Shown: piece after piece, positions 9,641 to 61,718 of the stretch
How positions within the stretch are numbered: the first letter of the stretch is position 1
Layout of the letters: each line of letters opens with the position of its first letter
Origin: an uncultured Eubacteriales bacterium
Lineage (GTDB): Bacteria; Bacillota; Clostridia; Oscillospirales; CAG-272
Assembly (NCBI GenBank): GCA_934467415.1
Contig: CAKSLQ010000003.1
Location: 77,957 to 141,956 of the forward strand
Length of the DNA: 64,000 nucleotides
Direction of reading: 5' to 3'
Made by a program: the position numbers and the translations under genes
Notes under the pieces: model-generated
Databases searched by the model: none
What the model was told of the DNA's origin: nothing
Seen by the model: only the letters and a program-made list of their open reading frames with translations

Positions 9641-9730
9641 CCATATTGGAGTTGTTTTTCGCGGATTCTGCATCCGCCTGCGCCGGTCAAGGCGGCGGGG
9701 GTAGGCGATGTTTGCGCAAAAGGAAACAAA

Positions 9731-9778
9731 GCCTTCCCCAGTGGGGGAAGGTGTCGGCGGAGCCGACGGATGAGGTGT
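9731..9778 (-). repeat. solo HP-I arm (3'-arm type)
   Basis: GCCTTCCCC-AGTG-GGGGAAGG-T-GTCGGC-GGA-GCCGAC-GGATGAGGTGT. Nearly identical to the arm at 28513-28560. Confidence 0.8.
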
Positions 9779-10007: not shown

Positions 10008-10118
10008 ACCTCCCTCGGTGAGGGAGGTGGCACGGCAACGCCGTGACGGAAGGAGTCTTGCTCTCTGCAAAACTCCCCCAGTCACCTATCGGTGACAGCC
10101 CCCTCAGCGAGGGGGCTG
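10008..10118 (-). repeat. HP-II five-hairpin element, copy 1 (inverted relative to the other two)
   Basis: Reverse complement aligns end to end with 50671-50778 and 61613-61718. Five consecutive stem-loops. Confidence 0.85.
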
Positions 10119-11068: not shown

Positions 11069-11116
11069 CCCCTCAGTCACCTGACGGTGACAGCTCCCCT
11101 TGCACAGGGGAGCCTG
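11069..11116 (-). repeat. half HP-II element (hairpins 1-2 plus CTGAGGGG)
   Basis: CCCCTCAG-TCACC-TGAC-GGTGA-CAGCTCCCC-TTGCAC-AGGGGAGC. Reverse complement matches the left half of HP-II and the GGCTCCCCTGTGCAAGGGG module. Confidence 0.7.
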
Positions 11117-21685: not shown

Positions 21686-21852
21686 AAGTATTCTGCGTAT
21701 CCTCCGTGTTGTCGGACGGTTACCCGTCGGTTTTGCCGGAAGATGCGGCGGCAGTCCGCCGTCGGAGCATCCGCCGAATGGGCAGGCGAGCCTGCCGCTC
21801 TCGATAACTCCGATCCTCGTTAACCGCGCGGTGCGCGGTCTGGCGCTAAAGG
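21686..21852 (-). ncRNA. glmS: glmS ribozyme (GlcN6P-activated)
   Basis: The minus strand reads ..UUU-AGCGCCAGACCGCG..GGUUAACGAGGAUCGGAGUUAUCGAGAGCGG..UUCGGCGGAUGCUCC.., matching the conserved glmS core and cleavage-site context. Lies directly 5' of glmS. Confidence 0.9.
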
Positions 21853-21934
21853 CGCGGCACATGTGCCGACGCCCTTTTCATGAGCGTATATTTTCTGCGG
21901 CTCCGCCGCGGAAAAACAAAATATGAAATCCCGT

Positions 21935-28383: not shown

Positions 28384-28512
28384 TGCCGCAAGCCGACTTG
28401 CTTGATAATCATAAAGCGGCGCCGTCTTGCGGCAAGTCTGTACAAAATCTGCTGTGCCGTGGACGCAGCCATTGACAAAGTGTATATGTGAAGTGTAATG
28501 CTTGCGCTTATA

Positions 28513-28985
28513 GCCTTCTCCAGTGGGAGAAGGTGGCGGCGCAGCCGTCGGATGAGGTGTTTACGACAGCTGCAAGCTGTCGTAATCCAAGCACAGCTTG
28601 TCCAGTATATCTGCGGTTACAGAACCGAAGTTTTTGCGGATACTATCATTGGAATAACGAAGCACAGTAATCCCCCACAGGGCAAGCTTCTCATCTCTTT
28701 GTGCATCAGTTTGTACATGTGCATCGGACAGATGCTGTTTTCCGTCTACTTCAATCGCTATTTTTTTCTCTGCAATATAAAAGTCCAGAATATAGTTTTC
28801 AATATTGTGTTGACGCCTCACATTGCAGGGAAGTTTTTTCAGAAAGTCATACCAAAGATGCTTTTCTTCCGGTGTCATATTTTTACGAAGCGTTCGCGCG
28901 TTTTGGACAAGCTTTTTATTATATGGCAGCATGGCTACTCCTCATCCACCGCTGACGCGGTCCCCCTTCTCCCGCAGGAGAAGGC
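28513..28985 (-). mobile_element. candidate selfish element: DUF559 endonuclease ORF bracketed by double-hairpin inverted arms (HP-I, full-length form)
   Basis: Arms at 28513-28560 and 28938-28985. Each reads GCCTTCTCC-N4-GGAGAAGG, then a second hairpin, then GGATGAGG, in inverted orientation. The interior is visibly AT-rich compared with the flanks. The same arms occur without an ORF elsewhere in the window. Confidence 0.55.
28561..28932 (-). CDS. DUF559 domain endonuclease (Vsr-like PD-(D/E)XK fold)
   Basis: ..NYILDFYIAEKKIAIEVDGKQH..RDEKLALWGITVLRYSN.. is the typical DUF559 core. SD GAGGAG lies 5 nt before the ATG. Confidence 0.8.
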   Translation of the reverse strand: MLPYNKKLVQNARTLRKNMTPEEKHLWYDFLKKLPCNVRRQHNIENYILDFYIAEKKIAIEVDGKQHLSDAHVQTDAQRDEKLALWGITVLRYSNDSIRKNFGSVTADILDKLCLDYDSLQLS

Positions 28986-29018
28986 TTTTTTAGTTGTTCG
29001 GCAAAGCTTGTTCGCCCC

Positions 29019-34550: not shown

Positions 34551-34652
34551 CCGTACAGCGGGATGCGGAATACGCACCGCAGGGCAAAGCCCTTTCGTCC
34601 GCTCCGCAACTCCCCGTCGGGGCGGCACTGTACGCGCGCATTCCTACTCTGT
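34551..34652 (-). promoter_or_regulatory. THF (tetrahydrofolate) riboswitch aptamer
   Basis: The minus strand reads ACAGAGUAGGAAUGCGCGCGU..GGGGAGUUGCGGAGCGGACGAAAG..CUGCGGUGCGUAUUCCGCAUCCCGCUGU. This matches the conserved AGAGUAG / GCGU / CGCGGUG / GCAUCCGCU elements of the THF-I class. Located 5' of folT. Confidence 0.8.
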
Positions 34653-34716
34653 AATTTAATCAGTTGAAAAATTCTGTTCTTCAACTGCCGACTCTATTAT
34701 AGTCGCTTTCTGCGGC

Positions 34717-50670: not shown

Positions 50671-50778
50671 CAGCCCCCTCGGTGAGGGGGCTGTCACCGA
50701 TAGGTGACTGGGGGAGTTTTGCAGAGAGCAAGACTCCTTCCGTCGCCGTTCGGCGACACCTCCCTCACCGAGGGAGGT
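50671..50778 (+). repeat. HP-II five-hairpin element, copy 2
   Basis: CAGCCCCCT..AGGGGGCTG, TCACC-GATA-GGTGA, GGAGTTTTGC..GCAAGACTCC, GTCGCC-GTTC-GGCGAC, CCTCCCT..AGGGAGG. Confidence 0.85.
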
Positions 50779-55365: not shown

Positions 55366-55781
55366 GGGAACGCGCAAACCGCACGGGGGCTTACTCCCGC
55401 CGTCCGAACCCAATCTGACTTTGGCTCCTCCTGACGGGGGAGCTGTCGCCGTAGGCGACTGAGGGAGAGATAACGCAAAGCAAGGCGGGTCGTCGAGGGA
55501 TGTTTTTCGGTTTCGCTTTGCGAAATCGTCGGTGTTCAGCCGACGAAGAAAAACTCCTTAGGAACACATCGTGTTCCGGGGGTCATGACCCCTACCGGAT
55601 TGTACAAAAGACGCACACACTGTAGGGCGGGGGCTTGCTCCCGCCGCACCTGCTCATACAAAACAATCATTCCCCGGTTGTTATTTTACTTTGCAAAAGA
55701 CACCTCATCCGTCGCCGTTCGGCGACACCTTCCCCCGCTGGGGAAGGCAAAGAACGCGGGTGACCGTACCGTTCTAACCAA
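55366..55781. repeat. dense mosaic of intergenic hairpin modules
   Basis: Contains a half HP-II (55423-55468), the ~60-nt shared module (55499-55557), GTAGGGCGGGGGCTTGCTCCCGCCGCA (55622-55648) and a solo HP-I 3' arm (55700-55748). Confidence 0.8.
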
Positions 55782-55944
55782 GCCTTCCCCCTTGGGGGAA
55801 GGTGGCGTGTAATACGCCGGATGAGGGGTAGCCATTCGTCAGAATGGCGTCTCACAGCACAGAACGAGACTGCGCAGACGGATGCTTACGCATCCTACCC
55901 CTCATCAGTCAACTCCGTTGACAGCTTCCCCCAAGGGGGAAGCC
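55782..55944. repeat. HP-I miniature (gene-less, symmetric arms)
   Basis: A and B hairpins, then GGATGAGGGGTA, then three small hairpins, then TACCCCTCATC followed by B' and A' hairpins. Confidence 0.85.
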
Positions 55945-61380: not shown

Positions 61381-61420
61381 AGGTAATAAGGTAGGAAATG
61401 CAGGGCGGCGCGTTCTCCAA

Positions 61421-61559
61421 GCCTTCCCCTTGGGGGAAGGGGGACCGCACCCGCGGTGGATGAGGGATTGCAGGCAGCAGGCACAGCATTGTGTGATGCT
61501 TTGCTTGCATCAATCCCTCATCAGTCGCCTACGGCGACAGCTTCCCCAATGGGGAAGCC
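61421..61559 (+). repeat. HP-I miniature (gene-less, with 5'-arm and 3'-arm polarity like the DUF559 copy)
   Basis: Left arm ..GGGGAAGG-GGG-ACCGC-ACCC-GCGGT-GGATGAGGGATT. Right arm AATCCCTCATC-A-GTCGCC-TAC-GGCGAC-A-GCTTCCCC-AAT-GGGGAAGC. Confidence 0.85.
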
Positions 61560-61612: not shown

Positions 61613-61718
61613 CAGCTCCCTCGGTGAGGGAGCTGTCGCCGAAGGCGACTGAGGGAGTTTTGCTCTGAGCGAAACTCCTTCCACCGCTGGCGCGGTCCCC
61701 CTCCCTCAATGAGGGAGG
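61613..61718 (+). repeat. HP-II five-hairpin element, copy 3
   Basis: Colinear with 50671-50778. Stems differ by paired substitutions. Confidence 0.85.

Follow-up and report, generated by a model that had tools for sequence, protein, structure and literature searches.

A 64-kb stretch of DNA from an uncultured Eubacteriales bacterium (the window) contains one gene for a protein with a DUF559 domain, enclosed by two inverted, structured repeats that are designated the 5' and 3' arms. On balance, the region probably represents a pan-bacterial module with two components, present here as a resident copy: a Vsr-like DUF559 nuclease gene and its cognate repeat of the BoxC/PIT/TM (triplex motif) type. 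The nuclease would nick the arms, and host repair would spread them. The repeat class, the protein domain and the precedent for such a layout, the repetitive extragenic palindrome (REP) with its REP-associated tyrosine transposase (RAYT), were known already; the proposed partnership between DUF559 and the repeat is new as far as the literature was searched. No paper linking DUF559 to such repeats was found in a literature search that had most subscription journals outside its reach, in agreement with a preliminary description of this DNA, whose author knew of no account of DUF559 with a hairpin-repeat element.

On the minus strand, the 5' side of the unit reads AAAAAG, hairpin A, GGG, hairpin B, the box GGATGAGG and AGTAGCC, followed by the ATG at position 28932, with 5 nucleotides (nt; TAGCC) between the arm and the start codon. 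On the 3' side, the TAA stop codon (28561) is followed with zero spacer by ACA, box', hairpin B', A, hairpin A' and CT (Table 1). The two arms of ~48 nt are inverted repeats in hairpin A and the box; the sequences of hairpin B differ, and both fold. This anatomy, an open reading frame (ORF) between arms made of A and B hairpins and a box at spacings of 5 and 0 nt, had been given correctly in the preliminary description in every detail that could be checked. Folded as single-stranded DNA, the window arms have z = -3.8 and -4.6 relative to shuffled sequences. The A-hairpin pattern has five matches in the window compared with 0.00 expected, and the box GGATGAGG has 12 compared with 2.3; an origin of the arms by chance is excluded. 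The box mirrors the 3' half of hairpin A (GGAGAAGG to GGATGAGG), which is the hallmark of a class of repeats already described. The unit is intergenic and has no intron or ribozyme signal; a search of Rfam gave no match at the element, neither at the gathering score nor at E <= 10.

More than 4800 relatives of the protein, with 123–124 residues and about 72–79% identity, are present in gut Clostridia. When one genome per species was taken, 80 loci were obtained and their flanks were inspected for arms. Both arms were recognized by a strict pattern in 60 of these loci, and most of the others are contig ends or have recognizable degenerate arms. The layout is uniform: GGATGAGGAGT closes the 5' arm 3–9 nt before the ATG (69 of the 80 loci), so that the box provides the Shine-Dalgarno sequence AGGAG, and the stop codon abuts CACCTCATCC, the 3' arm following it directly in 63 loci. 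Only 47 further arms were found in ~0.4 Mb of Clostridial flanks. The neighboring genes are mostly unique to each locus and of ordinary housekeeping type (ileS, recF, a NUDIX gene, a kinase, a methyltransferase), and upstream ORFs often run into the arm, ending at a TGA within the box. In three species (L044, L045 and L058; e.g. L044:2686–3470), the unit is inserted after a T-box leader, between its terminator and the valS start codon, and read-through transcripts from the leader must therefore traverse the whole unit before valS. Seven genomes, all metagenome-assembled, have two or three copies of the unit. Two or three 5' arms in direct tandem, with a period of ~52 nt, precede the DUF559 gene at L082:2843–2991, L063:42–138 and L085:10–103. 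In the second copy at L020, the 5' and 3' arms are separated by 83 nt; inspection by eye and translation of the 83 nt gave LGLEYYDLTP, to be compared with the consensus LGLDFxDLKP, and this short copy looks like an internal deletion en route to a miniature element. Contigs often end beside units: those of L105 and L106 stop ~50 nt past the CPBP gene, and many matches to homologues are on contigs of <2 kb. Such breaks are expected if the arms are multi-copy in those genomes.

The same arrangement is present in other phyla. A tblastn search of plasmids returned 24 DUF559 genes with 33–40% identity, and the flanks of eight were inspected. In a Sphingobium plasmid, CCTCCCCGAG-CTTGT-CTCGGGGAGG, GGG-ACCATGC-GAA-GCATGGT and GGAGGGGTGA are found upstream and the inverse downstream, which is the architecture of the window unit. 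In Deinococcus and Synechocystis the arms are inverted pairs whose box faces outward, two copies lie upstream of the Azospirillum gene, and in Pseudanabaena and Picosynechococcus related hairpin-plus-G-box repeats flank the gene on both sides; in Sinorhizobium and Photobacterium the repeats are on the downstream side only. A metagenome scan, seeded with a three-protein alignment of proteobacterial and Deinococcus DUF559 sequences, gave 80 loci from soil and water. For the 56 loci with at least 200 nt on each side, the upstream flank was scored against the reverse complement of the downstream flank, with mismatched pairs of loci as controls. A score of at least 40 was reached in 70% of the loci and 11% of the controls, and a score of at least 60 in 52% and 1.5%, respectively. 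Over all 80 metagenome loci, the density of motifs is 8.8/kb within 100 nt of the ORF compared with 0.46/kb beyond, and 107 of 136 adjacent motifs are directed at the ORF. The arm-to-ORF distance in these loci varies from -8 to -150 nt, and one arm (L173; TCCTTCTCCC..GGGAGAAGG..hairpin..GGATGAGGGGG) is nearly identical to the window arm. The bracket is therefore a feature of at least 60 of the 80 Clostridial loci and of about 70% of the 56 distant ones. The possibility, raised in the preliminary description, that DUF559 homologues elsewhere are never associated with the arms is decisively contradicted; there is one conserved unit in Clostridia and distant phyla.

A search of the literature with sequence strings linked the arms to the TM motif of Holder et al. 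(2015, PMC4666352), a repeat known since the 1990s, treated also by Hoyne and Maher (2000), and elsewhere called BoxC or PIT element. Its consensus is CCCTCNCCC-N3-6-GGGNGAGGG-N3-GGGNGAGGG, and it forms an intrastrand purine-motif triplex in vitro, a type of triplex that does not form in RNA (PMC4666352). The motif occurs in >260 genomes, with 23 copies in Escherichia coli K-12, and is intergenic, either solo or in inverted pairs that always join two types (type A and type B in E. coli); TM loci in E. coli are unusually rearranged and are hot spots (PMC4666352). The words Firmicutes and Clostridia are absent from the text of that paper (PMC4666352). In the window, CCTTCTCC, GGAGAAGG and GGATGAGG give 8 of 8 allowed triplets (G·G, A·A or T·A), with the box antiparallel to GGAGAAGG. 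Over all loci, the third block mirrors the second with a change of A to T, 219 being perfect mirror and 26 perfect direct repeats, and the families follow the same rule with different sequences: GGAGAAGG is mirrored by GGATGAGG, GGGGGAAGG by GGATGGGGG, GGGGGAGGG by GGGTGGGGG and GGGGAGAGGG by GGGTGAGGGG. The arms are likewise intergenic and are either solo or in inverted pairs of unlike types ('GGG-ACC' on the left and 'T-GTC' on the right). The second loop departs from the ~3 nt (N3) of the E. coli TM consensus (TMECO), because it measures 15–18 nt and contains hairpin B (14–18 nt), with expansions up to ~65 nt at some loci; short-loop versions of the motif are found beside other DUF559 genes among the metagenome loci. 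Since the mirror rule holds in every sequence family, the arms are assigned by their three blocks to the BoxC/TM class, as motifs in which the second loop is enlarged to accommodate hairpin B, and a triplex would be their putative fold. The view of the arms as an undescribed hairpin family has accordingly been abandoned.

Hairpin B always abuts the box. The lengths of its stems were measured with our own script; there are at least 23 distinct stems of 4–25 bp, and added material is always at the apex. A MAFFT alignment of all arms contained two hairpin-B types in different registers, and pairs were therefore counted on one type only. In this type, 97% of cells are paired and four of six pairs are changed on both sides; none of 500 shuffles paired as well, and slid registers were all much worse. 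As judged from these alignments, the arms are conserved as a fold, beyond sequence alone. They are also asymmetric. The 5' arms have the loop TGYG, a 'GGG-ACC..GGT' hairpin B and GGATGAGGAGT, and the 3' arms, read as the reverse complement, have the loop AGYG, mostly a 'T-GTC/GGC..GAC' hairpin B and GGATGAGGTGT. This polarity is kept in three of the four gene-less arm pairs among the loci and in the window pair at 61420–61559, where the left hairpin B is 'GGG-ACC..GGT' and the right one 'T-GTC..GAC', matching the full unit. Exact bracketing, together with the asymmetry kept in gene-less pairs, points to common descent of the units with and without the gene. From Clostridia to Proteobacteria, two unlike arms keep a fixed orientation towards a nuclease gene, and the block sequences and hairpin B drift with compensation; a partnership between the protein and the folded motif is the best explanation of this pattern.

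DUF559 is among the commonest nuclease domains of "unknown function" in bacteria. The window protein matches the Pfam profile PF04480 over the full length of the domain with 94.3 bits, compared with a curated cut-off of 20.6, and matches Protein Data Bank entry 3hrl with E = 7.5e-8. The residues of the Vsr-type D...E-x-D...H pattern (D50, E61, D63 and H67) are present and are invariant in the Clostridial and cross-phylum alignments. An AlphaFold2 model has a predicted local distance difference test score (pLDDT) of 81, and its best fold matches in Foldseek are the catalytic domain of I-Bth0305I (3r3p, E = 2.5e-5), the Neisseria DUF559 protein 3hrl and Vsr (1cw0). The preliminary assignment of a Vsr-like PD-(D/E)XK fold is in accord with these matches and with the intact catalytic residues. 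A profile search gave no match to Y1_Tnp. PADLOC returned only weak, generic nuclease or P-loop matches, and membership in a defense system was rejected on that basis. Purifying selection and the invariant catalytic residues indicate that the protein is functional, and nuclease activity is predicted from sequence and model; the literature search, within the limits given above, gave no activity assay for this family.

The DUF559 gene of E. coli K-12 is ycjD (1,351,407–1,351,760, minus strand, NC_000913.3). One of the 23 published motifs, TMECO no. 9, is located between ycjD and fabI at 1,351,204–1,351,239 (Holder et al., their Table 1, PMC4666352), ~170 nt from ycjD. A degenerate hairpin overlaps the ycjD stop codon, and a partial duplicate of the 3' end of ycjD sits between this hairpin and TMECO no. 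9 (L195:800–1050). The gene is present in 3378 of 5426 complete E. coli genomes (62%). It occupies the sapF-fabI slot that in other phylogroups contains the eefRABCD efflux operon, and a 2026 study reports two or more independent losses of this operon, ycjD having taken its place each time (PMC12817139). When K-12 (L196, 1,351,040–1,351,760) is compared with O157:H7 (L197), homology is unbroken up to ~40 nt from TMECO no. 9 and then persists in patches, fading out a few to ~25 nt short of it, so that the motif is at the edge of a ycjD-specific presence/absence segment. No connection to BoxC was found in literature mentioning ycjD, DUF559 or COG2852, most subscription journals being outside the search.

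In the mechanism that we propose, the DUF559 protein would recognize the folded arm, as a hairpin or possibly an intrastrand triplex, in transiently single-stranded or extruded DNA and would nick at or beside it. Because a PD-(D/E)XK hydrolase cannot join DNA, copying would fall to the repair or replication machinery of the host. If an arm or arm pair is broken, it may be repaired from another copy, the ~48-nt arms serving as homology, and such copying could insert the gene into an existing arm pair or remove it, leaving a gene-less pair. Nick-primed or slipped synthesis might generate new arms and would account for the direct repeats of 31–66 nt that occasionally flank units. The gene copy in the window would then be like a RAYT gene among REPINs, with the gene-less pairs and solo arms as its dispersed, non-autonomous relatives. 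A transcript that spans both arms would pair over ~46 bp and bury the ribosome-binding site, which could limit the level of a dangerous nuclease. In its widest form, the proposal is that DUF559 proteins are the cognate enzymes of BoxC/PIT/TM repeats throughout Bacteria, constituting a nuclease-driven, transposase-free class of repeats with a REPIN/RAYT-like layout, a Vsr-like hydrolase, a three-block triplex-capable fold and spread via host repair; this generalization is put forward tentatively, with a little less than even confidence.

Several observations weigh against such a module. All 23 metagenome contigs examined that encode the identical protein have it at this site, with arms and ORF nearly invariant; the spacers around the unit on these contigs have large insertions and deletions. 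A gene with 90% identity is present at the same site in the sister lineage, on all 23 contigs examined. Between the window and the sister lineage, the synonymous divergence (dS) is 0.47 for the DUF559 gene and 0.48 for the neighboring CPBP gene, and the equality of these values indicates no recent movement in the window lineage; the ratio of nonsynonymous to synonymous divergence (dN/dS) is 0.11, and the family median is 0.076. By these comparisons, the window gene is old at its site, vertically inherited, functional and under purifying selection. A gene that is fixed and inherited in this way makes the unit more like a resident partner of the REP/RAYT type than like a jumping transposon.

No clean pair of filled and empty sites for the full-length unit was found among the relatives compared. 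The rplA/CPBP site was rejected as an empty-site comparison, the sister lineage being filled and more distant relatives having a different neighbor (a GH43 gene). The insertion differences that were seen concern gene-less elements in the alaS-rpmH spacer and the presence or absence of ycjD, with no exact empty site for the full unit. There is also no regular short target duplication: direct repeats of 31–66 nt are present in only four of ~60 loci tested. Signs of turnover are seen in other genomes and speak for the module. At L071 (2750–3560) and L079 (2860–3620), whose flanks are 90–96% identical and in which the unit and variant solo arms are in a different order, the insertions are preceded by a duplicate of the last 31–42 nt of the upstream gene (31 nt in L071; 42 nt, perfect, in L079). 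L088 has a copy of one 34-nt terminator on each side, and the repeat at L042 is degenerate and ~66 nt long. Long direct target repeats of this kind are unusual for any known insertion mechanism.

The arms, moreover, are not always the limits of the shared DNA, because a tail and upstream genes travel with the unit. In many Clostridia, ~110 nt past the 3' arm recur with it in different contexts; this tail comprises a promoter-like stretch (TTGGTT-17-TATAAA) and then an intrinsic terminator (TTCCCACAAACC..GGTCTGTGGGAA). Explanations of the tail as an rRNA/tRNA neighborhood and as a degenerate duplicate of the upstream target were rejected, the former because it is this promoter-like stretch and terminator that moves with the unit, the latter because only CTTATAAAA is in common, which is not significant. 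Two blocks of ~1.2 kb, each with an upstream gene, the unit and the tail, have 75–94% nucleotide identity in species with otherwise unrelated flanks. (i) Block 1, found among L012–L050 (e.g. L012:2295–3534), comprises a hairpin, a TGnTATAAT promoter, a gene for a 181-residue P-loop kinase-like protein, the unit and the terminator tail; at L023, only the first eight kinase codons remain, directly ahead of the arm. (ii) In block 2 (L019, L027, L036, L038, L049, L057 and L073; e.g. L019:2219–3500), a gene for a ~210-residue S-adenosylmethionine (SAM)-methyltransferase-like protein replaces the kinase. On the same side of the balance, L059 and L069 lack arms on one or both sides of the DUF559 gene, the downstream arm is absent from the flank of the Azospirillum gene, and the upstream side of ycjD at the E. 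coli locus has no arm. No relative, and hence no copy, was found on the viral contigs of IMG/VR, and carriage by phage was rejected for this reason. Holder et al. did not observe a stable triplex in vivo and noted that in earlier work the motif had neither promoter nor terminator activity (PMC4666352). Finally, the proposed link between protein and motif is drawn from comparative evidence.

The preliminary description had also proposed that the unit is an autonomous element with non-autonomous derivatives and that its AT-rich interior suggests foreign origin. The relationship between long and short forms is favored by the conserved unit, its many contexts, its multiple copies, the asymmetry kept in gene-less pairs and the deletion-like copy at L020. 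Autonomous transposition is not supported, given fixation at one site, the matching dS values, the failure to find a clean empty site or regular target duplication, and the inability of a PD-(D/E)XK hydrolase to transpose on its own. The AT-rich interior is real: the G+C content of the ORF is 0.41, with 0.43 at third codon positions (GC3), compared with a G+C content of 0.61 for the whole window and GC3 of 0.71–0.80 in the adjoining genes. Foreign origin is a partial account of it, since the ORF is 10–20 G+C points below the host in all 78 of 78 hosts (28–42% compared with 37–60% in the flanks, slope 0.33). Low G+C despite co-divergence suggests constraint or repeated replacement and not a simple recent import.

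The fixed site, co-divergence with the neighbors and strong purifying selection would also be expected if DUF559 were a guardian of the host, that is, a domesticated structure-specific repair nuclease that clears the obstacles formed by BoxC/TM hairpins or triplexes. The gene would lie between motifs for autoregulation or by common descent, and the repeats would spread via slippage, recombination or an unknown enzyme. Vsr, the closest characterized relative, is a repair nickase, TM loci are rearrangement hot spots in E. coli (PMC4666352), and there is usually a single gene copy per genome. Dozens of unrelated contexts and two or three copies in some genomes are, however, not what is expected of a housekeeping repair gene; the gene is missing from 38% of E. 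coli genomes, its G+C content is below that of every host, and exact bracketing with kept asymmetry argues for common descent of gene-bearing and gene-less units. We regard this explanation as unlikely. A role of the arms as expression signals only, the 5' arm being a leader with the ribosome-binding site and the 3' arm a stabilizer or terminator, with gene-less pairs as wrecks and an unrelated target for the protein, is improbable. It would account for the AGGAG in the 5' box, 5–9 nt before the ATG, for the ~46-bp panhandle that is predicted for RNA covering both arms and hides the ribosome-binding site, for the resemblance of the 5' arm and its A-run to a terminator for the opposite strand, and for L020 as a wreck left by internal deletion. 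It leaves unexplained the solo arms, the tandem arrays, the 23 copies in E. coli, which has one gene, the flipped polarity in Deinococcus and Synechocystis and the variable arm-to-ORF distance. The three-block mirror rule, in addition, is a property of a DNA purine-motif triplex that is absent in RNA, and the published tests gave no promoter or terminator activity (PMC4666352).

It is very improbable that another enzyme, such as a single-strand transposase of the IS200/IS605 type or a RAYT-like one elsewhere in the genome, mobilizes the arms and that DUF559 is a landing site or passenger. Hairpin-based repeats are classically moved by HUH transposases (REP/RAYT, IS200/IS605), and the portion of this genome that was inspected is 64 kb; against this, the association is maintained across phyla with very different mobilomes and in a fixed orientation to the ORF, and the arms are without the tetranucleotide tag that is conserved in REPs. 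Holder et al. state that neither a transposase or integrase nor any other mobility function was found close to TM sites (PMC4666352). That a horizontally acquired ORF landed by coincidence in a pre-existing arm pair, such as the gene-less pairs in the same window, is practically refuted by the frequency of the bracket in Clostridial and distant loci and by the conserved start and stop spacing. The two-part module of nuclease and cognate repeat is the explanation that we retain.

The positions of the unit and of the other arm copies are collected in Table 1. Eight complete arms are present in the window, two at the gene, two gene-less pairs and two solo arms; the gene-less pairs, placed in the preliminary description at 61421–61559 and 55782–55944, and the solo arms were all located in the sequence. 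The full unit lies between the nusG-rplK-rplA cluster on one side and the CPBP-protease gene on the other. A blastn-short comparison of the interiors of the gene-less pairs with the DUF559 ORF gave no match.

Table 1. Positions of the DUF559 unit, its components and the other arm copies in the window
Feature	Position	Strand	Remarks
5' arm, BoxC/TM-type motif	28937..28986	(-)	sequence, fold, pattern counts
Hairpin A of 5' arm, CCTTCTCC-TGCG-GGAGAAGG	28965-28984	(-)	
Hairpin B of 5' arm, ACCGC-GTCA-GCGGT	28948-28961	(-)	GGG spacer from hairpin A
Mirror purine box of 5' arm, GGATGAGG	28940-28947	(-)	
Shine-Dalgarno AGGAG of DUF559 ORF	28938-28942	(-)	overlaps 5' box
DUF559 / Vsr-like PD-(D/E)XK nuclease gene (activity predicted), 123 residues	28561..28932	(-)	Pfam E 5e-27
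3' arm, inverted orientation	28512..28560	(-)	abuts TAA stop
Box' of 3' arm, CCTCATCC	28550-28557	(-)	
Hairpin B' of 3' arm, GACGGC-TGC-GCCGCC	about 28535-28549	(-)	
Hairpin A' of 3' arm, CCTTCTCC-CACT-GGAGAAGG	28514-28533	(-)	
Gene-less arm pair downstream of alaS	61420..61559	(+)	~50 nt between boxes; five-hairpin fold z = -7.8
Gene-less arm pair	55781..55944	(+)	~90 nt between boxes; fold z = -9.5
Solo arm (hairpin A, hairpin B, box)	55700..55748	(-)	
Solo arm (hairpin A, hairpin B, box)	9730..9778	(+)	

The alaS-rpmH spacer varies among relatives, a further sign of turnover. It contains two gene-less elements in the window; the sister lineage (L191) has the same first element with a further repeat inserted in the apex of hairpin B', L192 (AlaS 95% identical) has an element of another arm family, and L194 (a 73% relative) has a spacer of 152 nt with a plain terminator only and no gene-less element. 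The second element of the window, at 61613–61718, is a gene-less pair directly after the first pair and belongs to a second arm family of the same layout, with the blocks CTCCCTC and GAGGGAG and the box TGAGGGAG. Lone hairpins related to this family (ACCTCCCTC-N4-GAGGGAGGT) are found at 10008–10028, 50758–50778 and 11093–11113 of the window. The repeat in the hairpin B' apex of the alaS-side element (L191:2290–2380) is small, with the sequence ..GGACGTTTTTCGGTTTCGC..GCGAAATCGTCGGTGTT..CCGACGAAGAAAAACTCC.., and recurs downstream of the DUF559 element in L001–L010, where the spacer that leads to rplA is variable (e.g. L001:3560–3680). A different insert of ~45 nt (..GGTTCCCAAAA..TTTTGGGG..) is present in the hairpin-B apices of L061, L068, L071, L079 and L086, and other elements appear to use the apex of hairpin B as a landing site. 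Two ordinary features of the window, unrelated to the unit, scored above the Rfam gathering threshold: a tetrahydrofolate (THF) riboswitch at 34554–34653 (-) and a glmS ribozyme at 21689–21858 (-).

BoxC/PIT/TM repeats are catalogued in hundreds of genomes, and their origin, spread and function are still unexplained. If the proposal is correct, the DUF559 proteins and the repeats would each gain an explanation, the nuclease being perhaps the long-missing partner of the repeats; there would be a second partnership of the REPIN/RAYT kind with a different enzyme chemistry, and a recognized source of local genome instability would be accounted for. E. coli K-12, with one gene (ycjD) and 23 motifs, would be a ready-made model, and a nuclease with specificity for a folded DNA motif could also be of practical use.

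The arms share with published BoxC/PIT/TM repeats the order of pyrimidine block, short loop, purine block, second loop and mirror purine block with the change of A to T, and also the intergenic location, the occurrence as solo copies or unlike inverted pairs and the local rearrangement. They differ in having hairpin B in the second loop and in their 8-nt, A/T-richer blocks (CCTTCTCC); no associated gene or mobility function is reported for the published repeats, whereas the window arms frame a DUF559 gene. Vsr (1cw0) and DUF559 have the same fold and the same catalytic D...(E/x)xD...H pattern, and Vsr is a nickase. Vsr is paired with the Dcm methyltransferase and cuts T:G mismatches, in contrast to DUF559, which has no conserved methyltransferase partner (one is found in one subgroup of loci only). 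The best structural match is I-Bth0305I (3r3p), whose spread would likewise rely on host repair after cleavage, although DUF559 lacks the extra DNA-binding domain of that enzyme. Like homing endonuclease genes, the DUF559 gene is small, AT-rich and horizontally scattered; unlike them, it is outside any intron or intein, has no defined cognate allele lacking the gene among those found, and is framed by inverted structured repeats.

Miniature inverted-repeat transposable elements (MITEs) and their autonomous insertion sequences (IS) resemble the unit in having long and short versions with common terminal inverted repeats, the short ones being hairpin-folding and intergenic. The unit is unlike these systems in that its only ORF encodes a hydrolytic nuclease and not a DDE or other transposase, in that it has no regular short target duplication, and in that the shared DNA does not always end at the arms. 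The REP/REPIN-RAYT system ("REPtron") has the same layout, a single vertically inherited nuclease-type gene between inverted structured repeats, with strong purifying selection on the gene and with dispersed intergenic gene-less copies as inverted doublets and singlets. A REP consists of a simple hairpin and a conserved tetranucleotide tag, whereas the arms described here are three-block triplex motifs. The RAYT protein (TnpA_REP) is an HUH/Y1 transposase that cuts and rejoins single-stranded DNA via a covalent intermediate, whereas DUF559 is a hydrolytic PD-(D/E)XK protein.

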